A stretch of 64,000 nucleotides of DNA. Source: Myxococcales bacterium. GTDB taxonomy: Bacteria; Myxococcota_A; UBA9042. Both the position numbers and the translations under genes were made by a program. The stretch is from positions 45,308 through 109,307 of the forward strand of contig JBBISH010000006.1 of NCBI GenBank assembly GCA_037441385.1, in the 5' to 3' direction. This document shows positions 41,467 to 52,475 of this stretch, one piece after another. The notes beneath the pieces are model-generated. The model searched no databases. It was not told where the DNA came from and saw only the letters and a list, made by a program, of their open reading frames with translations. How positions within the stretch are numbered: the stretch's first letter is position 1; every line of letters begins with the position of its first letter.

Positions 41467-42177
<711 letters not shown>

Positions 42178-42198
42178 GGTGGTCCTTTTCTGGGTCGG

Positions 42199-42471
42199 TT
42201 AGGCGGCCGGGGTCACGGCGTCGACGACACCCACGATCAGGCAGCGAATCGGGTTCTTGGGGTCGGCCAGGATCTGGCGGATGCCGTTGCCCTCGCGCAG
42301 GATGATCACCGTGTCGCCGGGTCCCGACTGGGCGTGGTCGACGGCGAGGAAGGTCTCGCCGGCGTCTTGGCCATGCTCGTCGATCGGCTGCACGCTGAAC
42401 ACCGCGTAGCTTTTCAGCCCCGGGTGCTTGATGGTCGAGACCACGTTGCCGATGACGCGCGCAAGAATCAT
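42199..42471 (-). CDS. Bacterial microcompartment vertex (BMC-P, EutN/CcmL) protein
   Basis: [16 protein letters not shown]...[12 protein letters not shown]...IVGVVD; 90 aa. Confidence 0.93.
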
Positions 42472-42493
42472 CTGGGGCTCCCTGCTGGATCGC

Positions 42494-42763
42494 CTACGCC
42501 TCGACGTGGACGTGGTCGACGATGGCGATGATGGCCGCGTCGACGGGCACGAACGCATCGGGCAACGCCAGCGCCGCCTCGCGGGATTCGGTGACATGCA
42601 CCAGATCGCCGGGCCCAGCCTGGGTCACGTCGGCGGCACACACCGGCTTGCCGCGCGGCTGGTCATCCTCGCCAACCGGCTGGACCATGAGCAAGCGAAT
42701 GCCGCCAAGCCCTTCGGCTTTCTTGGTGGCGACTACGGTTCCAATCACGCGGGCGAGAAACAT
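42494..42763 (-). CDS. Bacterial microcompartment vertex (BMC-P, EutN/CcmL) protein
   Basis: [15 protein letters not shown]...[12 protein letters not shown]...[11 protein letters not shown]; 89 aa. Confidence 0.93.
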
Positions 42764-42814
42764 GCGCGCGACTTTGGCACAAGCACGCCCCCACCGCAAG
42801 CGGACACGGGCCCC

Positions 42815-42981
42815 CCGATCCGCCGCTTTGGGCGCAACTCGGCGTTGCTGCGTCGTCCCAGCTACGGGTTGCCCCACTGGGGCGACCCGTTCACCCTTCG
42901 GGCGACCGCTGGGGCCCTTCTCCCTGCGGCGACCTTTAGGTCGCCTCAGTCGCTCCGCTCCTTGCGCCTTGATTTGCATCC
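42815..42981 (-). repeat. 167-bp structured intergenic repeat, copy 2
   Basis: Reverse complement of 30518-30684 with one mismatch. Confidence 0.9.
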
Positions 42982-43088: not shown

Positions 43089-44252
43089 TCAACCCTCTTG
43101 GCCGTCGATGCGCGGCCGGGTCAGGATCGGCCAGTACACCACCGCAAACACCGCGTAGCCCGCCGCCCACAGCACGCCCGCAAGCAGCACCAGGTTGGGG
43201 TCGCCGCCAAAAACCCGCAACAGCGCGCCCGCGATGACCAAGTAGTAGGCCACCACGGTCGGCGGCGCCGCCACCAGCGGTCGGCCCGAGTGCCCCAGCG
43301 CCGCGCGCGATGCCACCGCCAGGATCATCACGCCGATGGCACCGGCGGTCAGGGCGTGCAAGGCGGCAAACGCGCCGATCGGCCCGCCCAGGTCGCTGAT
43401 CCCCTTGAGCAGAAACCCCAGCGGAATGAAGGCATAGCCGGCGTGCAGGATCCACACGAGCGGCAGCCGGCGCGTCTGCCAGGTCCGCCAATGACGCATG
43501 CGCAGCCCCGTCACCAGCGCCGCCGCCAGCGCCCCCCCACCGCTCGTCGCCGAAAATGGCACGGCCAGCTCGGACACCACCACCAGCGCGACCAACGGCA
43601 CCGCCGCGCGATCGAGCCAAGCTGGCGTGCTGCAGGCGTGCTCGGCATGGCCGGCCTGGCGCAGCGCGTTTTGGGTGAAGCTGGGCACGATCCGCCCGCC
43701 GATCAGCGCAATCAGCGCGGCGATCAGGTACACGGCGGCGTGCAGGGCCTGGGCCTGCAACGGCCCAGCGGGCGCCAAATGGTACAGCAGGTTCAAGCCC
43801 CACAGCGCCAAAAGCATCGCCACCACCTGGTAGTTGCGGGCGTTCTTGGCGCGCAGGATGTCCAGGCCCACCCAGCCGGCCAGAATCGGCAGGAACAGCA
43901 GGTCCAGCGGCCAGGCCGGGATCCCGGCCGGGGTCAGCGCCATGCCCAGCCGCCCCAACAGCCACGCCACCGCCAGCACCCCGGCGCGCGTGCCGCGAAA
44001 CAGCGGGCCCTGCGTCCACTTGGGCACCGCCGCCTGCAGGAAACCGCCCACTGCGGCCACCGCAAAGCCAAAGATCAATTCATGGCCGTGCCACCACGGC
44101 GACAGCGGCAGGTGACCGCGCCAGGCCAGCAGCCACGCGGTCAGGGCCAGCGGCGCAAAAATCCCGGCGGCCAGGAACAGGCTGCGGTGGCCCGAGGCCA
44201 AGAAAACCGGGCCTTGCCAGCGCTGCGATGTCGGTCCAAGAGGTATCGGCAT
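43089..44252 (-). CDS. nnrS: NnrS family membrane protein
   Basis: GHRSLFL, WHGHELIFGF, GFLQAAVPKWT, GGRIVPSFT, WILHAGY, LHALTAG, RAALGHSGR. Confidence 0.92.
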   Translation of the reverse strand: MPIPLGPTSQRWQGPVFLASGHRSLFLAAGIFAPLALTAWLLAWRGHLPLSPWWHGHELIFGFAVAAVGGFLQAAVPKWTQGPLFRGTRAGVLAVAWLLGRLGMALTPAGIPAWPLDLLFLPILAGWVGLDILRAKNARNYQVVAMLLALWGLNLLYHLAPAGPLQAQALHAAVYLIAALIALIGGRIVPSFTQNALRQAGHAEHACSTPAWLDRAAVPLVALVVVSELAVPFSATSGGGALAAALVTGLRMRHWRTWQTRRLPLVWILHAGYAFIPLGFLLKGISDLGGPIGAFAALHALTAGAIGVMILAVASRAALGHSGRPLVAAPPTVVAYYLVIAGALLRVFGGDPNLVLLAGVLWAAGYAVFAVVYWPILTRPRIDGQEG

Positions 44253-44369
44253 GGTCGTCTCTCTGTCCACTGCGGGGGCAAGCGCCTATACTCCCCCGCG
44301 TCCGGCCATGTTAGGATAAAACGATAAATAAGTCTATAGACGATCGCACCGCGGTCGAGAGAGCCTGCG

Positions 44370-45803
44370 ATGAGCCGCAAGAATCGCCCGTACCAGTTCT
44401 ACGACACCACTGGCGCCGTGTGCAGCACCTGCCTGCGGCAGATCGAGGCCAAGGTGGTCATCGAAGCCGAACGCGTACTGCTGGACAAGTGGTGCCCGGT
44501 GCACGGCATGGAGCGCGTGTTGCTGGCCGATGACCCCGAGTGGTACCGCCTGGGCCGCGAGGTGTTTGTCAAACGGCCCGAGATGCCGGAAAAGTTCAGC
44601 ACGCAGATGGAGTTCGGCTGCCCGTACGATTGCGGCCTGTGCCCGGACCACATGCAGCACTCGTGCCTGACCGTGCTCGAGGTCACCGACCACTGCAACC
44701 TGCGCTGCCCCACCTGCTACGCCGCCTCGGGGCCCGAGCGCACCACCCACCGGCCGCTGACGACGGTGATCGCCATGCTGGACGCGGCGGTGCGCAATGA
44801 GGGCGAGGCCGACGTGGTGCAGATCTCGGGCGGCGAGCCGACCTTGCACCCCGACTTCTTTGCGATTTTGGACGCGGCGCGCGCGCGGTCGATCCGCCAC
44901 TTGATGGTCAACAGCAACGGTCTGCGCATCGCCCAGGACCAGGACTTTGTGACGCGGCTGGCCGAGTACAAGAAGGGCTTCGAGATCTATCTGCAATTCG
45001 ACTCGCTGCAACGCGAGCCCCTGCTGGACCTGCGCGGCGCGGACCTGCGCTCGGTGCACAGCAAGGCCCTGGACAACCTGAACGCCGCTGGGATCTCCAC
45101 CACCCTGGTGATGACCGTCAAGCGAGGCGTCAACGACGGCGAGATCGGCGCGGTCCTCGACTACGCCCGCCAGCAACCCTGCGTGCGCGGTGTGACGCTG
45201 CAACCGGTGCAAGAGGCGGGGCGCTGCGATCACTTCGACAGCCGGCAACACCGCCTGACCGTGAGCGAATTGCGCCGCAAGATCGCCGAGCAGTTCCCGA
45301 CCCTGACCTTGCGCGACATCGTGCCGGTGCCGTGCAACCCCGACACGCTGGCGATGGCCTATGCGATTCGCCAGGGGCCCGAGCTGGTGCCTCTGACCCG
45401 CTACCTGGACTACCAGACCTTGGTCGAGGGCGGCGGCAACACCATCGCTTTCGAGCGCGACCCGCAGTTGCGCGACAAGGTCTTCAGCCTGTTGTCGACG
45501 GGGCACTCGCCCGAGAGTCAGGCGAATTGTTTGTCGGATTTGCTGTGTTGCCTGCCGCAAGTCGCCGCGCCCAGCCACCTGGGCTACCAAGACGTGTTCC
45601 GCGTGCTGATCGTGCAGTTCATGGACGCCCACAACCTGGACCTGCGGGCGCTGAAAAAGAGCTGTGTACACATGGTCCAGCCCGACGGGCGCATGATCCC
45701 GTTCGAGAGCTACAACCTGCTGTACCGCGACGAGCGGGCGCAGACGCTGGCGCAATTGCGCAGCGAGCTCAAGGCTTTTCATCAACTCCGCTTGGGTCGC
45801 TAG
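44370..45803 (+). CDS. Radical SAM protein, MJ0619/Tes (GDGT-MAS)-like family
   Basis: N-terminal CSTC...CPVHG, CPYDCGLCPDH auxiliary motif, CNLRCPTC, QISGGEPTLHP, YLQFD, C-terminal KKSCVH..PDGRMIPFESYN. Confidence 0.88.
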   Translation: MSRKNRPYQFYDTTGAVCSTCLRQIEAKVVIEAERVLLDKWCPVHGMERVLLADDPEWYRLGREVFVKRPEMPEKFSTQMEFGCPYDCGLCPDHMQHSCLTVLEVTDHCNLRCPTCYAASGPERTTHRPLTTVIAMLDAAVRNEGEADVVQISGGEPTLHPDFFAILDAARARSIRHLMVNSNGLRIAQDQDFVTRLAEYKKGFEIYLQFDSLQREPLLDLRGADLRSVHSKALDNLNAAGISTTLVMTVKRGVNDGEIGAVLDYARQQPCVRGVTLQPVQEAGRCDHFDSRQHRLTVSELRRKIAEQFPTLTLRDIVPVPCNPDTLAMAYAIRQGPELVPLTRYLDYQTLVEGGGNTIAFERDPQLRDKVFSLLSTGHSPESQANCLSDLLCCLPQVAAPSHLGYQDVFRVLIVQFMDAHNLDLRALKKSCVHMVQPDGRMIPFESYNLLYRDERAQTLAQLRSELKAFHQLRLGR

Positions 45804-45808
45804 CGCAG

Positions 45809-46519
45809 CTACTTCGGTTTGTTGCAGCAGATCGCGGGCGCGCATGAGCCGATCACGAATTCCACGCCATATTCCACGGTTTTGCGTCGCCAGCACAGGG
45901 CGTTGTCGCCGCATTCCGAGTCGTCGGTGCACAGCATCGAGCACCAGGCTGGCGCGTCGGGACGGATCGCCACGGGGCAAGTCTTGGCGGCCAGGTTGCC
46001 CGCGCAGTCGCTCATGGTCGTGCAGGGCTTGCCCACGCCAAAGTTGTTGACGCTTCCCGAGTTGCAGGGCTGCGTGCAGGTGGCGCCGTCGGGAATGTCG
46101 ATGGAATACGTCGCGGCGCACTGGACCGGCATGCAAACCTTGGGCTCCTTGGGGCCGCGCGGCACGCAGACGCCGCCGTCGCCGCATTCGTTCGGCATGC
46201 CAAAGCAGTACTGGGCGCAGAAGTGCGGGGCGCCGTTGCCCAGGTTGTTCAAACAGGTCACGGCGTCCTGGCCGTAGCAGTCTTCTGGCTTGTTGCAGGG
46301 CTTGCCCAAGCCGCTGCTGTTGACGGGCGTGGCGGCGCAGGGCGGGCCCACGGCAGCGTCGCCAGCGTCCAACGAAGTATCTGATTTTGAGTTGGTTGCG
46401 CTGTCCGTGTCCGCGCTGGCGTCTACGGCGCCGCTCGTAGCCGGAGTGGTGGCGGGGCTGCTGCAGGCCAGCGCAAGCCATGTGGCCACGGCGGCGAGCG
46501 GGCGGATCGGGTACGGCAT
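45809..46519 (-). CDS. Cys-rich lipoprotein with two internal repeats
   Basis: Lipobox ALAC; two VN..G.GKPC....DC.G....C modules. Confidence 0.8.
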   Translation of the reverse strand: MPYPIRPLAAVATWLALACSSPATTPATSGAVDASADTDSATNSKSDTSLDAGDAAVGPPCAATPVNSSGLGKPCNKPEDCYGQDAVTCLNNLGNGAPHFCAQYCFGMPNECGDGGVCVPRGPKEPKVCMPVQCAATYSIDIPDGATCTQPCNSGSVNNFGVGKPCTTMSDCAGNLAAKTCPVAIRPDAPAWCSMLCTDDSECGDNALCWRRKTVEYGVEFVIGSCAPAICCNKPK

Positions 46520-46687
46520 GGTGGCCTGGCACGGGCAGCGGCCCACCGTTGCAGTCTACGCGGCGCATCCGGCAAAAGCACCCGCAACTTCTGGGCAATG
46601 GTTTGGCCGGCTTGCCCTTGCGGCCTTGTTGCAAGGGTCGAAAGCGACTAGCCTTCTTGGCACCGGCTTCTTGCTGGGCGGTGTGCG

Positions 46688-48055
46688 ATGCGCGTAGCCC
46701 TGGTCAATCCGCCGTGGATGTACAAGCGCCTGTATACGCACGGGATCTACCCGCCCTACGGCATCTTGATGCTGGCGACGCAGCTCAAGCTGGCCGGCCA
46801 CGACGTGCACCTCCTGGACGCCAACGCGCTGGAGTGGAGCGAGGACGAGACCCGCGCCCGCATTGCCGCGTGCGACCCCGATGTACTGGGAATTACAATT
46901 TTTACCGATGGGTTTGGCTTTGCCGAACGCACCGGGCCGTGGTGGAAGCGCCATTCCGGCGGCAAACCGCTGCTCATTGGCGGGCCTCTGGTGTCGGGCG
47001 CGCCGCAGACGCTGCTTCGGGCCAGTCAGGCGGACGTGGCGGCAATCGGTGAGTCGTTTGTCTCGGGGCCGCAGCTCGTGGCGGCGCTCGAAAAAGGCAC
47101 ACCGCTGAGCGAGGTTGCGGGTCTGATCCTGCACCACGCCGACGGCAGCTTGCAGCCCACCGGACCCACGCCGGCCTGGGGCGACCTGGACACGCTGCCC
47201 CTGCCCGACTGGGACCTGTTGCCGGTGGAGCTGTACCTGCAGGGCGGCATGCAGCCGTTCTTCAAGAAGCGCAGGATCAATCGCTACTTGTCGACCATCA
47301 CCACACTGGGCTGCGCCTGGCGCTGCAGTTTTTGCCAGGTGCCCGACCTGTACCCAGGCGTGCGGGCCCGCGATCCCGAGCGGGTGGCCGACGAGATCGC
47401 CCTGTATCGCGAAAAGTATTCCATTGGGGGAATGTACTTTCGCGACGACATCCTGTTCCGTCCCGGCAAGATCGCCGAAGCACTGGGTCGCAAGGTTCCG
47501 GGCCTGCCCTGGAGTTGTCTGCTGCGCGCCGACATGATGACCGACGCCGTGCTGGCCAAGATGGCGGCGGGTGGCTGCGTGGAGATCCGCGTGGGGTTCG
47601 AGAGCGGCGACGACTTGGTGCTGTCGCTGGCCAACAAGAAGACCGAGGTGGCGCAGAATCGCCGCTGCATCGAGCTGGCGCGCAAGCACGGCATCGCCAT
47701 CTCGGGCTTTCTGATCGTAGGTTTGCCCGGCGAGACGGAAGAGAGCCTGGCGGCCACCGAGCGGTTCGTGCGCGAGATGCAGGTCCGCGTTTCGGTTCAC
47801 TTTCCTTTGCCGCTCCCTGGCACGGACCTGTACCGTCAGACGCTGGCGCGCGGCGAGATCGGCGACGAGGCGGCCCTGTTGCGCAAGTTTTCGGAGCCGC
47901 AGCTGCCCGGCGCGGTCCTGCAACCGCCGCCCATCAACCAGTGCGATCTGCCCGAGGACGTGCTGGTGCACTGGGCCATGCGGCTTGCCGCCGCTGGTCA
48001 GGCCGCCGATGATGCGGCGAGCGCGCCCACTGGCCACGCCGACGCGCCGTTTTGA
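46688..48055 (+). CDS. Cobalamin-binding radical SAM protein (class B type)
   Basis: VNPP..YPPYG..LA, IGGP B12-binding domain; GCAWRCSFC; FRDD; GFESG; LIVGLPGET; PLPGTDLY. Confidence 0.9.
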   Translation: MRVALVNPPWMYKRLYTHGIYPPYGILMLATQLKLAGHDVHLLDANALEWSEDETRARIAACDPDVLGITIFTDGFGFAERTGPWWKRHSGGKPLLIGGPLVSGAPQTLLRASQADVAAIGESFVSGPQLVAALEKGTPLSEVAGLILHHADGSLQPTGPTPAWGDLDTLPLPDWDLLPVELYLQGGMQPFFKKRRINRYLSTITTLGCAWRCSFCQVPDLYPGVRARDPERVADEIALYREKYSIGGMYFRDDILFRPGKIAEALGRKVPGLPWSCLLRADMMTDAVLAKMAAGGCVEIRVGFESGDDLVLSLANKKTEVAQNRRCIELARKHGIAISGFLIVGLPGETEESLAATERFVREMQVRVSVHFPLPLPGTDLYRQTLARGEIGDEAALLRKFSEPQLPGAVLQPPPINQCDLPEDVLVHWAMRLAAAGQAADDAASAPTGHADAPF

Positions 48056-48071
48056 GCCCGCACGAGGTGCC

Positions 48072-50642
48072 GTGAGCCTTCCTTTGCCGACCCTGGACCA
48101 ACTCCGCCACGACTTGGGCGCGTTGGGGCTCGATCGCATGGCCCGAGCGGGGTTGCGGCGCGATCCGGGGCAGTACAACCTGCTGGTGCACATCGTGCCG
48201 CCCGAGGTGGCCAAGGATCACGCCGCCAGCGACCTGGTGGCCGATCGCCTGGCCGAGCCGCCGGGGCCGCTGTGCCTCTATGTCCACATCGCCGCTTGCA
48301 CCGGCCGCTGCACCTTTTGCCACTACGCCATCGAGGTCAACCCGAGCGACGAGCAGACTGAGCGGTACCTACGGGCGCTGGAGACGGAGATCACGGCCCG
48401 CTGGTCCGGCTTGGACGAGCGCAGCCCGGTCCGCTCGCTGATGATCGGCGGCGGCACCCCCACCTACCTCAGCGCCAAGCAACTTGACAGACTTTTCAAG
48501 CACTTGCATGGCACGGTTCGCCTGGATCCCGGCATCGAGCTGACCATCGAGGGCTCGCCCGAGACCATCACCCGCGACAAGCTGCAGGTGCTGAAGGACC
48601 ACGGCGTCAACCGCCTGAGCCTGGGCATCCAGAGCTTTGACGACGCCATGCTGCGGCTGCTGGGCCGGCGCCACGACCAGCGCGGGGCCCTGCACAGCCT
48701 GGAGCTGGCGAGGGAAATCGGCTTCGATCACCTGAACTTGGACCTGATCTACGCCTTGCCGGGCCAGACCCTGGAGGGGTGGCTGGCCGACGTGGCCCGC
48801 GCCGCCGACTTTGGCATCGACAGCCTGACCACCTACCACCTGCGCAAGCGGCCCGACACGGTCATCTCGCGCCACGCCTCGCCCGCCGAAGACCTGAATC
48901 TTTTGATGCATGTCGGGGCACTGCGGGTGCTGGAGGAGCGCGGTTACCGGCAGTCGCTGGTCGACTACTTCTGCAAGCGGGAGTTGGAGACCGCCCAGGT
49001 CCAGGCCCGCGACAAATGGCGCGACATGCAGCCGGTCGACGGGGTGGGGCTAGAGGCCTGTTCGCGCCGCCGTGGGGTGATCGCTTTTGATCACGCCGAG
49101 TTTTCGACGTGGATCGCCGCGGTGGAAAACGGCGACGGGCCGCGCGGCTGGCCGCTCGCGCATGGGCGGCTGCTGTCGATCGAAGAACAGATGGCGCAGC
49201 AGGCCATGTTCGGCCTCAAGGTCCTGGATCCGGGCGGTGGTCTGGACAAGGCGGCGTTTGCCCGCGACTTCGGCAAGACTGTGGACGAGGTTTTTGGCAG
49301 CGTTCCCAGCGAGTTGATGGACGCCGGCGCGCTGACCGACACCGGGACGCACCTGCAGTTCACGCCCGGCGGGACGCTGCTGGGCGACGAAGTGTGCCAG
49401 CGCTTCTACACCGAGGAGCTGCGCCGCAAGATGGTGTCGCGGGTGCGGGTGCGCGCCGAGGGCAGCACTGTGGCCGTGCCCCGGGGCAGCGAGCGGCAGG
49501 CGATTGACTCGGCCGAGGTCTTGGTCATTGGCGCCGGCGTGGCCGGCCTGCACACCGCCGCGGCGCTGGCGGCGGATCTGGGCGCGGGCGTGCTGCTGGT
49601 CGAGGCCGAGGGCGAGATCGGCCGTGGCGCTACGGCCGCCGCTCTGGGCGGCTTTCGCACGCAATTTGCCGATCCGCTGCTGGCCGAGCTGACGGCGCGG
49701 TCGCTGCAGTACTATCAGAAGCGGGCGCTGGGACCGGACGGCCATCGCCTGGGCCTGCAGCGCGACGGCTACGTGTTCTTGGTGGCCACTGCGGCGGACC
49801 GCGCGCTCTGCGAGGCTCAGGCCACGATCGCCCGCCAGCACGGGCAGGCGCTGCAGTGGCTGGAGCCCAAGCAACTGGCTGATCTGATTCCAGGTATCGC
49901 CACGGACGACCTGCTGGGCGCCTGGTACGGGCCCGACGACGGCCGCTTGGACCCGCACGGGGTGGCTTGGCTGGCGCGGCGCGATCTGCTCGAGCGCGGC
50001 GGCCGGCTGCGGCTCGACACGCCCGTCCAAAAGCTGAGGCTGCACAAGGGCTCGGTGGTGGGCGTGGACACGGCGCGCGGCTGGATCGCGGCGCGGCAGG
50101 TGGTGCTGTGCACGGGTGCGGCTACGCCCCAGCTGCTGCAGCAAGCCGGCGTGACGCTGCCCCTGGCGGTGGACAAGCGCCGCATCTTGATGGCCCAAGG
50201 CGCGGATCTTCCAGGCTATCCTGGGCCGCTGGTGCTGGGGCAGACGCCGCCGCTGTACTTCCGGCCCGAATCCAACGGTCTGCTGGTGTCGGCGCGCGAG
50301 CTGAGCAACGACGACGACTTGCCCTGGGACGCGGTGGTCCGCGAGCGGGCGATGGCGCGGCTTCCAGTGCTGAAAACTGCCCGCTGGATCCCGGGTTGGA
50401 GTGGTCAGCAGACCCACAGCCGCGACGGCCGGCCGCTGGTGGGGCCGTGCCCAGGGTTGGAGGGCGCGTTCCTATGCACTGCGTTGGGCGGCGCGGGGAT
50501 CATGCACGCTCCGGCGGTGGCGACCCTGGCGGCGGGTTGGGTGCTGGGTACCGCCGATGGCGCGCTGGCGGAGGAGCTGGATCCGCGGCGGGACCTTGGT
50601 CGCGGTCTGACACAGCTGCGCGATTTGCCGCCAGTAGGGTGA
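48072..50642 (+). CDS. Fusion: HemN-like radical SAM domain plus FAD-dependent DAO/sarcosine-oxidase-beta-like oxidoreductase
   Basis: LYVHIAACTGRCTFCHY, GGGTPT, NRLSLGIQSF, DLIYALPGQT; in the same frame VIGAGVAG, GATAAALGGFRTQF, DGRLDP, SRDGRPLVG, GAGIMHAP. GTG start with GAGGT RBS. Confidence 0.88.
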   Translation: MSLPLPTLDQLRHDLGALGLDRMARAGLRRDPGQYNLLVHIVPPEVAKDHAASDLVADRLAEPPGPLCLYVHIAACTGRCTFCHYAIEVNPSDEQTERYLRALETEITARWSGLDERSPVRSLMIGGGTPTYLSAKQLDRLFKHLHGTVRLDPGIELTIEGSPETITRDKLQVLKDHGVNRLSLGIQSFDDAMLRLLGRRHDQRGALHSLELAREIGFDHLNLDLIYALPGQTLEGWLADVARAADFGIDSLTTYHLRKRPDTVISRHASPAEDLNLLMHVGALRVLEERGYRQSLVDYFCKRELETAQVQARDKWRDMQPVDGVGLEACSRRRGVIAFDHAEFSTWIAAVENGDGPRGWPLAHGRLLSIEEQMAQQAMFGLKVLDPGGGLDKAAFARDFGKTVDEVFGSVPSELMDAGALTDTGTHLQFTPGGTLLGDEVCQRFYTEELRRKMVSRVRVRAEGSTVAVPRGSERQAIDSAEVLVIGAGVAGLHTAAALAADLGAGVLLVEAEGEIGRGATAAALGGFRTQFADPLLAELTARSLQYYQKRALGPDGHRLGLQRDGYVFLVATAADRALCEAQATIARQHGQALQWLEPKQLADLIPGIATDDLLGAWYGPDDGRLDPHGVAWLARRDLLERGGRLRLDTPVQKLRLHKGSVVGVDTARGWIAARQVVLCTGAATPQLLQQAGVTLPLAVDKRRILMAQGADLPGYPGPLVLGQTPPLYFRPESNGLLVSARELSNDDDLPWDAVVRERAMARLPVLKTARWIPGWSGQQTHSRDGRPLVGPCPGLEGAFLCTALGGAGIMHAPAVATLAAGWVLGTADGALAEELDPRRDLGRGLTQLRDLPPVG

Positions 50643-50649
50643 GGCCGCG

Positions 50650-50883
50650 ATGGCGCTCGACGATGGGCGGCAACGGGGACAAGCTAGGTATCTGCGGGGA
50701 CTTGAGTTCCGCCTGGGGCCGTGGGCCCCGGTGGGCGAAGGCAGGGACCACGATCACTGTGGCTACTGCTGGGCGAAATTCTCCATGGCCCAAGAGGATC
50801 TGCATTCCGGGTGGACGGACACCGCGCACGAACATTGGATCTGCGAGGACTGCTACCGAGACTTCGCCGACCAATTGCGGTAG
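50650..50883 (+). CDS. Small CxxC...CxxC putative zinc-binding protein
   Basis: DHDHCGYCWAKF...WICEDCYRDF; starts 7 nt after the previous stop with a GAGG RBS. Confidence 0.7.
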   Translation: MALDDGRQRGQARYLRGLEFRLGPWAPVGEGRDHDHCGYCWAKFSMAQEDLHSGWTDTAHEHWICEDCYRDFADQLR

Positions 50884-50989
50884 GCCTCGCGCCGTCGTGT
50901 CACGGGCTCGTCTCTATCCCCTTGTCAGGAAAGCATGAAATCGGCATTATCACAAATAGAGAAACGGGGCTTTCTCTATTTGGTAAGTC

Positions 50990-52423
50990 ATGCTGAAGAT
51001 TGCCGAAGCCGACATTGCGGCCCGCCTGCGGGCTGACAACCCGTGGTGGAGCGCCCCGCCCACCCGCAGCTCTGCGCCGCTTGCCTGGCCGCGCCGGGCC
51101 TACTTTGTCGCCCTGCTGCGGCTGCTCGACCTCCCCGTACAGCGAGCGATCATCTTGCTCGGCGCTCGCCGGGTGGGTAAGACCACGCTGCTGCGGCAAG
51201 TCATCGGCGAAACGGCGCTCGCCGACCCAGGCCGACCGATCTTGTATGCGTCGATCGATGCCCCAACCTATACCGGCCTGTCCCTTGACGATCTTCTGGG
51301 TCTTTTCGTGCGTGTCTGGCCACACGACGCCACGGGCCCAAGGCTCGTTGTCTTCGACGAAATCCAATATCTGTCCGAGTGGGAGCGACACCTCAAAGAC
51401 TTGGTCGACCGCTACCCGAACACTCGCTTTGTGGCAAGCGGTTCAGCCGGCGCGGCGCTGCGGCGAAAGAGCCAAGAGTCCGGCGCCGGCCGGTTCAGCG
51501 ACTTTGAACTCCCTCCACTTACGTTCGCTGAATTTCTTGAATTTGTTGGACAACTTGATCAGGTCATCGACCGATCTGCTCCTGTGCCGCGCGCCCGCGA
51601 TATCGGTGCGCTGAACGCGCTGTTCGTAGACTACGTGAACTTTGGCGGCTATCCCGAGGTCGTGGCCAACGCGGCGATTCGTGACGACCTTGCCCGCTTC
51701 GTTCGCAGCGACATCGTCGACAAGGTGTTGCTTCGCGACCTGCCGTCGCTGTACGGGATCTCCAACATTCCAGAGTTAAATAGGCTGTTTACGACGGTCG
51801 CCTACAACACGGGTCAGCTTGTCAGCTTGGACGCTTTGTCGAAAGGGTCGGGTATCAGCAAGCCGACACTGAACAAGTACTTGGAGTACTTGGAGGCGGC
51901 CTTTTTGATCGTACGGTTGCGGCGCGTCGATCAGAATGCTCGTCGATTTGAACGTGAGCGCGATTTCAAGGTGTACCTGACCAATCCGTCCATGCGGGCT
52001 GCGCTTTTTGGCCCCGAGACGATTGACGGCGCGGCGATGGGAGCGCTGGCAGAAACGGCACTTGTCACGCAATACCTGCACGCCCCGATGTTTGCCGACT
52101 TGGCCTTCGCGCGGTGGAAGCGCGGCGAAGTAGACCTGCTCGCCCTGGACCCGGCGACGCAGCGGCCGCGTTGGGCCCTGGAGGTCAAGTGGTCGGATGG
52201 CGCACCCGAGCGGCGCAGCGCGTGGACGCACCTGCTTGATTTCGCGGCGGCCAACCAACTCGACACCGTCCACCTGACTTGCCGTGCGGGCGAAGAGCAT
52301 CGAGGTTCGGGGAGTCCCCAGTGCGTGATTTGGCAACATGCGTTGCTCTGCTATCAGATCGCCACGCTTGCGGCCTCTCAGGCCGCAGTGCTGTCGCGGC
52401 ATGGGCTGCCGCCGCAGCCGTGA
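50990..52423 (+). CDS. AAA_14-type ATPase with DUF4143/PD-(D/E)xK-like C-terminus
   Basis: GARRVGKTT, FDEIQY, ASGS, ESGAGR, GGYPE, YLEYLEAAFL, KVYLTNP, GEVDL...LEVKW. Confidence 0.88.
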   Translation: MLKIAEADIAARLRADNPWWSAPPTRSSAPLAWPRRAYFVALLRLLDLPVQRAIILLGARRVGKTTLLRQVIGETALADPGRPILYASIDAPTYTGLSLDDLLGLFVRVWPHDATGPRLVVFDEIQYLSEWERHLKDLVDRYPNTRFVASGSAGAALRRKSQESGAGRFSDFELPPLTFAEFLEFVGQLDQVIDRSAPVPRARDIGALNALFVDYVNFGGYPEVVANAAIRDDLARFVRSDIVDKVLLRDLPSLYGISNIPELNRLFTTVAYNTGQLVSLDALSKGSGISKPTLNKYLEYLEAAFLIVRLRRVDQNARRFERERDFKVYLTNPSMRAALFGPETIDGAAMGALAETALVTQYLHAPMFADLAFARWKRGEVDLLALDPATQRPRWALEVKWSDGAPERRSAWTHLLDFAAANQLDTVHLTCRAGEEHRGSGSPQCVIWQHALLCYQIATLAASQAAVLSRHGLPPQP

Positions 52424-52475
52424 GGCCCGTGGCGCAATTCGATCCGTAAAACGCCCATCTGCCTGCACTTTGCCC

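Follow-up and report, generated by a model that had tools for sequence, protein, structure and literature searches.

The radical SAM genes of the window

The 64,000-nucleotide stretch analysed here (the window) covers positions 45308-109307 of contig C6 in a 6.6-Mb metagenome-assembled genome (MAG) of the Myxococcota, labelled G000. Between window positions 44370 and 50883 it carries genes for three radical S-adenosylmethionine (SAM) enzymes, namely a Tes-like enzyme, a cobalamin (B12)-binding class B enzyme, B12a, and a HemN-like protein fused to a DAO-family flavin domain, together with a gene for a Cys-rich lipoprotein and a small open reading frame (ORF) with two CxxC pairs (Table 1). A sequence-only reading had described these five ORFs and their CxxxCxxC motifs, and all were found where it had placed them; the gaps it gave, 16 nt between B12a and the fusion and 7 nt between the fusion and the small ORF, were also obtained when recomputed. 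None of the three radical SAM enzymes of the window reached an NCBIfam equivalog cut-off. As detailed below, B12a, the fusion and the lipoprotein almost certainly belong to one module of about 15 genes, to which the Tes-like gene and the CxxC ORF are two bystanders, and we lean towards the view that this module builds a small methylated nitrogen-containing compound and not a tetraether lipid.

B12a and the HemN-amine oxidase fusion

Close orthologs of B12a and of the fusion were searched for in 41 genomes (25 of the same family and 16 of other families of the class) and occur in the same seven, G000, G005, G007, G013, G017, G019 and G022, referred to below as carriers. The two genes share one contig in 7/7 carriers: they are direct neighbours in five, and the distance between them is about 3.9 kb in G017 and about 7.2 kb in G013; the fusion of G007 is present as two contig-end pieces. 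Order-wide counts refer to 37 genomes of the order, seven of which have B12a orthologs (61-94% identity); the fusion search covered the 41 relatives, with the 12 genomes added for the order-wide B12a count left out. G013 also contains a second, partial B12a/fusion copy on a 3.9-kb contig (L035, G013:C1) that is 87-93% identical to the G000 type, while its own copies are only 60-70% identical to that type; the contig was probably mis-binned. Of eight metagenome loci retrieved, five hold B12a and the fusion, two are short contigs with B12a alone and one has a distant (28%) relative. The record of locus L049, which has the same genes as G017:C139, is labelled Enterobacteriaceae; its contig matches the present Myxococcota family, and the label is likely an error.

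The B12-binding domain PF02310 (55.7 bits) and the radical SAM domain PF04055 (76.2 bits) of B12a are both over their cut-offs, and the Cys triad of its CxxxCxxC motif is invariant across six orthologs. The two domains follow each other in the order seen in the class B enzymes HpnJ, BchE, BzaD, AprD4 and TokK, and the same is true of a second such enzyme, B12b, encoded outside the window. However, both proteins score far under every class B equivalog cut-off: the best NCBIfam score of B12a was obtained with HpnJ (123 vs. 578 bits), and HpnR gave 63 vs. 650. The closest solved relative of B12a is AprD4. Both families are narrow; the B12a profile drops from 848 bits to 317 at the next single-domain match over the full length, and in the B12b family identity falls to 54% and then to 28%.

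The fusion consists of a HemN-like (class C type) domain at about amino acids 25-450 and a sarcosine-oxidase/DAO-family flavin adenine dinucleotide (FAD) domain at about 479-840. Protein-database matches comprised 15 clusters at E<=1e-60, 14 of them covering 95-99% of its length, and the halves are joined without a stop in 15/15 aligned rows; judging by these alignments, the fusion is genuine. Mean pairwise identity is 64% in the HemN half and 50% in the DAO half, which is closest to sarcosine oxidase/dimethylglycine dehydrogenase-type chains. Residues of the HemN fold in the solved structures of HemN (1OLT, E 9e-36) and NocN (E 3e-32) align with the first half, including the CxxxCxxC and GGGTP stretches and the HemN_C domain (PF06969, 25.4 vs. 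a cut-off of 24). In the alignment, the region that would hold a second SAM site is conserved relative to both structures. However, the protein falls under the cut-offs of HemW (TIGR00539, 189.6 vs. 205.4), HemN, HutW and STM4012, and the HNXXYW motif described for HemW in the accessible part of PMC10114718 is absent from 15/15 fusion rows. It also differs from HemN-like class C enzymes by the DAO-family flavin domain that it carries, a form known in just 15 clusters.

The Tes-like gene and the CxxC ORF are bystanders

Matches to the Tes-like protein at E<=1e-30 were found in 8 of the 41 genomes. Orthologs with at least 49% identity occur in G000, G007, G012, G014, G020 and G021; among weaker relatives, one in G017 (38%) lies beside a methyltransferase gene, and contig C313 of G006 (L043-L045) has three distant Tes/TrsS-like genes (30-33%) within 12 kb. 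In the search of 41 genomes the Tes-like gene was not found in four of the seven carriers (G005, G013, G019 and G022), while G012, G014, G020 and G021, where orthologs are present, are non-carriers. The Tes-like gene and the module overlap no more than expected by chance (Fisher p=1.0 for 25 family genomes, which are kin and not independent). As can be seen from the alignment of G005, which matches G000 on both sides of the site, positions 44251-45834 holding the Tes-like gene are missing there; in G000 and G007 the gene adjoins the B12a-fusion pair. Unlinked orthologs, chance overlap and the syntenic gap in G005 rule out the Tes-like gene as a member of the system. The earlier suggestion that the three radical SAM enzymes of the window act on one substrate is thus not borne out, since the Tes-like orthologs are unlinked to the pair and distributed independently of it, an outcome that the sequence-only reading had itself named as refuting; B12a and the fusion, for their part, do stay linked in relatives.

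Small membrane-protein-like genes adjoin the Tes-like orthologs of G012, G014, G020 and G021. An Lgt-like gene (PF01790) lies beside the ortholog in G020 and G021, and Lgt look-alike ORFs, judged from their N-termini, are found at this place in G012 and G014. The three genes, seen together at loci L038-L041 of these four genomes, look like a conserved cassette, of which no description was found in the literature surveyed. In G000 the Lgt-like and membrane-protein partners are dispersed (C78:18047-18709 and C17:31089-31745).

By Pfam, the Tes-like protein contains a Tes-type zinc ribbon and a radical SAM domain. It aligns along most of its length with Tes/GDGT-MAS (MJ0619, 7TOL; E 3e-64) and keeps the rubredoxin CxxC...CxxH, N-terminal cluster and radical SAM CxxxCxxC motifs; C18/C21/C42/H45 and C84/C88/C91/H94 match 7TOL in the alignment and do not vary among six orthologs. 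However, it scored 257 vs. a cut-off of 450 with the Tes model (NF045702) and 311 vs. 490 with TrsS (NF045646), three of the four Cys of the C-terminal aligned block are lost, and Met439 and Tyr459 of GDGT-MAS are replaced by V415 and M435. The accessible part of PMC9433317 describes these two residues as completely conserved across 1000 archaeal homologs and variants at them as still active. Since such variants stay active, the loss would lower membership in the Tes family more than function. The bacterial Tes-like family has its own invariant C322, C394 and C432. A lipid role for bacterial Tes homologs is only hypothesised in the accessible passages of PMC8941075, and the diabolic-acid producers screened in PMC13159169 had no Tes homologs according to the part available; the supplements of both papers contain lists of bacterial Tes homologs that may be relevant to the present family.

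The CxxC ORF and an AAA_14/DUF4143 gene fill positions ~50592-52430, between the fusion and rpsB. This 1.84-kb segment is absent from the two closest relatives, G005 and G007, and makes the fusion differ from its closest ortholog in the last ~15 residues. The CxxC ORF had no match in the other loci compared or elsewhere in the genome, and a zinc-ribbon match was below threshold (E 0.16). The absence of the insert from G005 and G007 rules out this ORF as an operon member; of the operon that had been suggested for B12a, the fusion and the small protein, the linkage of the first two genes stands.

The wider module and its distribution

The genomes G013, G019 and G022 have compact clusters that, in three different gene orders, contain B12a, the fusion, B12b and genes for an HpcH/CitE-like aldolase, an LdpA-like protein, a HisC-like transaminase, a HAD-like phosphatase, tandem GGACT/GGCT, a PF12831 flavoprotein and a three-subunit xanthine-dehydrogenase-type molybdenum (Mo) enzyme. 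The block spans about 68.5-83.6 kb of contig C32 in G022 and about 20.1-36.2 kb of contig C432 in G019. No polyketide synthase, nonribosomal peptide synthetase or precursor peptide was found in the compact clusters, and no transporter or regulator is conserved across the three. G000 has all the core enzymes, scattered over contigs (Table 1). The real system exceeds the window; the third radical SAM enzyme in it is B12b, not the Tes-like protein.

Table 1. Genes of the region and scattered module genes in G000. Positions are those of the window, or of the contig where one is named.
Gene	Position	Strand	Product or remark
Tes-like radical SAM	44370-45803	+	477 aa; C109/C113/C116
Cys-rich lipoprotein	45809-46519	-	236 aa; no Pfam family
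B12a, B12-binding (class B) radical SAM	46688-48055	+	455 aa; C209/C213/C216; PF02310 and PF04055
HemN-like/DAO fusion	48072-50642	+	856 aa; C76/C80/C83; PF04055, PF06969, PF01266
CxxC/CxxC ORF	50650-50883	+	77 aa; C37xxC40 and C65xxC68; no Pfam family
AAA_14/DUF4143 ATPase	50990-52423	+	Pfam; outside the system, second gene of the 1.84-kb insert
B12b, second B12 radical SAM	C6:38407-39900		Ends 5.4 kb before the window start
HpcH-like and LdpA-like	C180		
HisC-like and HAD	C32, end of contig		
PF12831 flavoprotein and GGCT	C32:28.9-34.6 kb		Between two beta-propeller genes
Mo enzyme	C5:89-92.5 kb		

B12a, B12b, LdpA-like, HAD and HpcH-like genes are each present in the identical 7 of the 37 genomes, the carriers. 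GGCT is found in eight, the seven carriers and G011. An ortholog of the Mo subunit (at least 688 bits vs. at most 244 for other paralogs) is present in seven, namely six carriers and G011 but not the fragmented G007, and ten further genomes have distant paralogs only. The PF12831 enzyme is encoded in the loci of G000, G005, G011, G013, G017, G019 and G022 and was not found in 15/15 non-carriers tested (of 29). The HisC-like gene is in the loci of all seven carriers, to which that search was confined. In the phylum, a PF12617 match (the LdpA-like family) was obtained in 6 of 401 genomes, all of them module carriers. Within one Myxococcota family, the module is present in only a minority of genomes. 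Carriers interleave with non-carriers in a GyrA tree built from 15 genomes, and there is therefore no simple clade effect; a B12a tree of six sequences groups G000, G005 and G013 as the GyrA tree does. Such a pattern would fit an ancient vertical inheritance after which the complete set was lost several times.

An asparagine-synthase-like gene beside the lipoprotein genes of G000, G007 and G011 was rejected as a core member, being patchy in carriers (a 39% match in G013, partial matches only in G017 and G019, none in G022). A Na/solute symporter gene abuts the module in G013 only, beside B12a, where it is tied to bacillithiol-type genes (L028:4267-11688; PIG-L, BshC and a glycosyltransferase); symporter and PIG-L genes likewise lie together in G000 (C9:472-8000, L057). 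Next to the site in the window, nnrS (43089-44270, - strand) is directly upstream in G000 and G005; in none of the three compact clusters was it observed to adjoin the module. A tandem array at 41467-42979 (- strand) consists of a class II aldolase gene and two genes for EutN/CcmL microcompartment vertex proteins, with no hexamer shell genes among the nearby ORFs scanned; G005 has the same block. Promoter and terminator scans of the region gave signals no better than those of shuffled sequence, and no RNA element is listed for it.

Individual module enzymes

The HpcH-like, LdpA-like, HisC-like and HAD genes form one conserved four-gene operon. The LdpA-like protein is over the PF12617 cut-off and has a central ferredoxin-like Cys insert; its structural model is a TIM barrel with a low-confidence Fe-S insert (pLDDT 76). 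A fold search with this model returned generic TIM barrels, many of them sugar-phosphate enzymes, at Z 15-18 with no stand-out (top matches: Z up to 17.8, rmsd 2.5, 198 aligned residues). Because G022 has lost the Fe-S insert, the barrel appears to be the conserved part. The LdpA-like gene of G022 (L059:219-1091) and its HAD gene (C32:77348-78085 of that genome) represent a natural deletion variant or early decay. LdpA is reported as exclusive to Cyanobacteria in the accessible part of PMC5520375; the Atlas lists LdpA clusters whose commonest taxa are not Cyanobacteria. With the model of cyanobacterial LdpA (NF045992) the present protein scored 100.9 vs. a cut-off of 450, and it differs in context, its gene lying between those of an aldolase and a transaminase in an enzyme operon of non-photosynthetic Myxococcota. 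No match was found in phages. A link to phototrophy received no support, no photosynthetic reaction centre being found in 5/5 carriers tested.

The HisC-like pyridoxal phosphate (PLP) enzyme is nearest to histidinol-phosphate aminotransferases (TIGR01141, 248 vs. a cut-off of 277) and scored 167 vs. 291 on the CobD model. Its gene is a paralog, a separate his operon being present on contig C51 of G000. That operon, and the presence of the HAD gene in only 7/37 genomes, rule out a housekeeping role of the HisC-HAD pair in histidine synthesis. Among family models, those of XdhA, 4-hydroxybenzoyl-CoA reductase and PucD come nearest to the Mo subunits. Solved structures match only the FAD-binding start of the PF12831 enzyme. 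Among the scanned module proteins, the sole equivalog cut-off reached was that of a PfpI subfamily, by an accessory protein of G013.

Lipoproteins and beta-propellers

The Cys-rich lipoprotein of the window belongs to a two-repeat family present in 8/37 genomes, the seven carriers and G011, usually in two to four copies. In G000, G005, G007, G011, G013 and G017 its genes lie inside or beside module genes, the neighbours being B12a, B12b, GGCT, Mo enzyme or beta-propeller genes. The lipoprotein belongs to the system. A search of the Atlas with it returned only unnamed Cys-rich clusters of the Myxococcota. Beta-propeller genes were also found in the carriers G017 and G019 and in none (0/3) of the non-carriers tested. 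Invariant residues are H86, H132, H206 and H289 with M190, D244 and C390 in the first propeller type and H207, H400 and H457 in the second, and the His pattern suggests a metal site. In a fold search the propellers behaved generically, matching the beta subunits of quinohemoprotein amine dehydrogenase (QHNDH) and hydrazine synthase and thiocyanate dehydrogenase, with WD40 proteins scoring alike.

In complex prediction, residues 58-236 of the lipoprotein and 170-505 of the second propeller (C32:33049-34566) gave a score of 0.72, compared to 0.00 for the best control. The mark used is reached by 116/157 solved pairs and 2/215 mismatched ones, a calibration that is only rough with the alignments used. 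At least 58% of contacts were shared between runs, and the partner had a pLDDT of 80 or more. The lipoprotein is thus predicted to bind a beta-propeller lipoprotein, though the score could reflect resemblance to a solved complex. The predicted interface includes the invariant propeller residues 485-488 and the invariant G83, V87 and F106 of the lipoprotein; its invariant W192 and W210 are not among the interface residues named. TTQ/CTQ amine dehydrogenases likewise combine a propeller with a small Cys-rich subunit, and in them a pair of Trp residues at the propeller interface forms the cofactor.

Pyrroloquinoline quinone (PQQ), heme d1 and the quinohemoprotein and methylamine dehydrogenase cofactors are made by pathways that have periplasmic beta-propeller clients. 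The logic shared with these systems is the co-inheritance of radical SAM genes with exported seven-bladed-type propellers, and a weak match to a PQQ-associated propeller was obtained here. However, no pqq, nir, qhp or mau orthologs are present among the scanned module genes, and no MauG/QhpD-type maturase is conserved in the module. In G022 only, a second HemN-like radical SAM gene and a two-heme cytochrome c gene lie amid lipoprotein and propeller genes (L087:10600-12998, about 102.6-105 kb of its contig C32).

A putative pathway

We infer every reaction of the following scheme, the reaction order, the direction of the pathway and the lipoprotein role from gene content, co-occurrence, linkage and domain families, which are observed, and from folds taken from models. 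The HpcH/CitE-like Mg aldolase and the LdpA-like barrel would make or rearrange a phosphorylated carbonyl skeleton; the HisC-like transaminase would bring in nitrogen, and the HAD phosphatase would take off the phosphate. HisC works with a phosphatase in histidine synthesis, and by this analogy the four-gene operon may convert a phosphorylated carbonyl to an amino alcohol. Methylation or C-C bond formation could then fall to both cobalamin radical SAM enzymes and to the class C domain. Methylases are known in class B as well as in class C, and three radical SAM enzymes, two of them class B, fit biosynthesis. Oxidation of the product, to an imine, a ring or from aldehyde to acid, may be carried out by the fused flavin amine oxidase, the PF12831 flavoprotein and the Mo-hydroxylase, and the tandem GGCT may cleave off a gamma-glutamyl group. 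The paired lipoproteins, a His-conserving propeller and the Cys-rich protein, would be a client, carrier or receptor of the product.

A xanthine-dehydrogenase-like complex is described in a biosynthetic role, oxidising an aldehyde to an acid on a sugar-derived pyrrole, in the accessible part of PMC12983305. The manlipyrrolamide (man) cluster presented there resembles the module in leading to a sugar-derived N-heterocycle and in having an aminotransferase and a three-subunit xanthine-dehydrogenase-like complex. It differs in its NDP-sugar chemistry and DegT-type aminotransferase, the passages available name no radical SAM, LdpA, HpcH or GGCT gene, and the likeness is one of analogy only.

Several points weigh against the biosynthetic scheme. 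Apart from the accessory PfpI subfamily match in G013, no equivalog match assigns a reaction to any of the proteins, and Mo-hydroxylase, amine oxidase, aldolase and GGCT genes are equally typical of catabolic loci. G011 has a compact oxidoreductase/GGCT/propeller/lipoprotein block, and this genome, which is 84% complete, gave no match to B12a, B12b, the fusion, HpcH, LdpA or HAD; the two halves of the module may thus be separable, although contig C78 of G011 breaks off at the very place that B12b occupies in G000. L064 and L065 (contigs of 4.6-5.1 kb), which are among the seven metagenome loci with a true B12a ortholog, have no other module gene. In G022 the Fe-S insert is missing from the LdpA-like protein, and the match to HAD falls in two frames. 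Finally, all observations come from just seven to eight MAGs of one family, which are kin and not independent.

Alternative functions

It is also conceivable, if rather unlikely, that the module is an uptake-and-remodelling or catabolic route in which surface lipoproteins capture an external N-heterocycle or gamma-glutamyl amine, e.g., from prey, the Mo-hydroxylase, flavoproteins, GGCT, transaminase and aldolase degrade it and the radical SAM enzymes carry out an unusual activation. The nearest relatives of the Mo subunits and of the DAO half, the exported lipoproteins and G011, where the oxidoreductase/GGCT/lipoprotein half stands without radical SAM genes, would all agree with degradation, as would the heme-degrading ChuW/HutW, which belong to the HemN-like class C enzymes according to the accessible part of PMC10114669. 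However, the lack of a transporter or regulator conserved in the compact clusters speaks against such a route, and the one symporter near B12a, in G013, goes with bacillithiol-type genes there and in G000. Two cobalamin radical SAM enzymes and a class C domain would be unusual for a single catabolic route. We regard as improbable the proposal that the module, without the Tes-like gene, makes an unusual amino-polyol or branched amino sugar for later attachment to a lipid or surface glycan. The G019 cluster abuts glycosyltransferase, flippase and O-antigen ligase genes, a distant HpcH-like relative on a Novosphingobium plasmid lies beside ORFs that, judged from their N-termini, resemble glycosyl- and nucleotidyl-transferases, and the affinities of B12a to HpnJ and AprD4 point the same way. 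Among the three compact clusters, however, glycan genes flank that of G019 only, no nucleotidyltransferase is conserved in the module, and the Mo-hydroxylase, amine oxidase and GGCT would have no obvious role.

The sequence-only reading had favoured a membrane-spanning, methylated or ring-containing lipid made jointly by the Tes-like, B12 and HemN-fusion enzymes. The alignment of the Tes-like protein to GDGT-MAS with its motifs kept and the place of its gene beside the pair in G000 and G007 are consistent with this, but the gene profile largely refutes it: the gene is not found in four carriers, including G005, where it is missing from the same site, and is present in four non-carriers. The protein is also without equivalents of Met439 and Tyr459, the genes scanned with Pfam in the three compact clusters include none for acyl, prenyl or glycerol transfer, and the screened diabolic-acid producers had no Tes homologs, as cited above. 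A tetraether, Tes- or Grs-type lipid is thus not supported as the substrate class, and we consider a joint lipid pathway very improbable. The 24 families listed in the model search included no Grs model. A link to hopanoids or sterols was rejected as well, the HpnJ and HpnR scores being far under cut-off and no match to the squalene-hopene cyclase family of triterpenoid cyclases being found in 5/5 carriers tested. Hardly credible in our view is a module that makes or remodels a cobamide lower ligand or linker, with BzaD/BzaE-like B12 enzymes, a CobD-like PLP enzyme and a CobC-like phosphatase, or one that makes a phosphonate. B12a does show weak matches to BzaD and P-methyltransferase models, and the HisC-like enzyme has the CobD score given above, but it is nearer to HisC (248 bits), the CobS family is found in 0/5 carriers vs. 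9/14 controls, and the phosphoenolpyruvate mutase family is unmatched in 3/5 carriers, one of the two matches, in G000, being partial.

Novelty and significance

The part of the sequence-only reading that finds support is its expectation of a biosynthetic system not yet described, without polyketide synthase or nonribosomal peptide synthetase, that probably acts on a small amine-type metabolite. No description of this gene set was found in the literature surveyed, which mostly left out subscription papers and excluded supplements. Judged by family models, the module matches no known system: its parts are similar to LdpA, HisC, Xdh and radical SAM enzymes of classes B and C but stay below the specific cut-offs.

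A more specific possibility, which we consider unlikely, is that radical SAM and molybdenum chemistry serve here to produce a novel organic cofactor or a small metal-binding molecule. Its recipient would be a surface enzyme of a new class, in which a disulfide-rich lipoprotein clamps a beta-propeller lipoprotein lined with His, and the LdpA-type barrel would be an ordinary metabolic enzyme. If this were true, the cyanobacterial clock protein LdpA would gain a testable catalytic ancestry. The Tes-like gene belongs with the Lgt-like cassette and is worth a study of its own; a bacterial Tes homolog beside other radical SAM genes is no proof of tetraether lipids. For the family, the module offers a bounded and testable gene set, with three uncharacterised radical SAM families and a HemN-amine oxidase fusion, which three relatives hold as one block suited to expression. 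The presence of an LdpA-like protein in an aldolase-transaminase-phosphatase operon makes the chemistry of LdpA testable.

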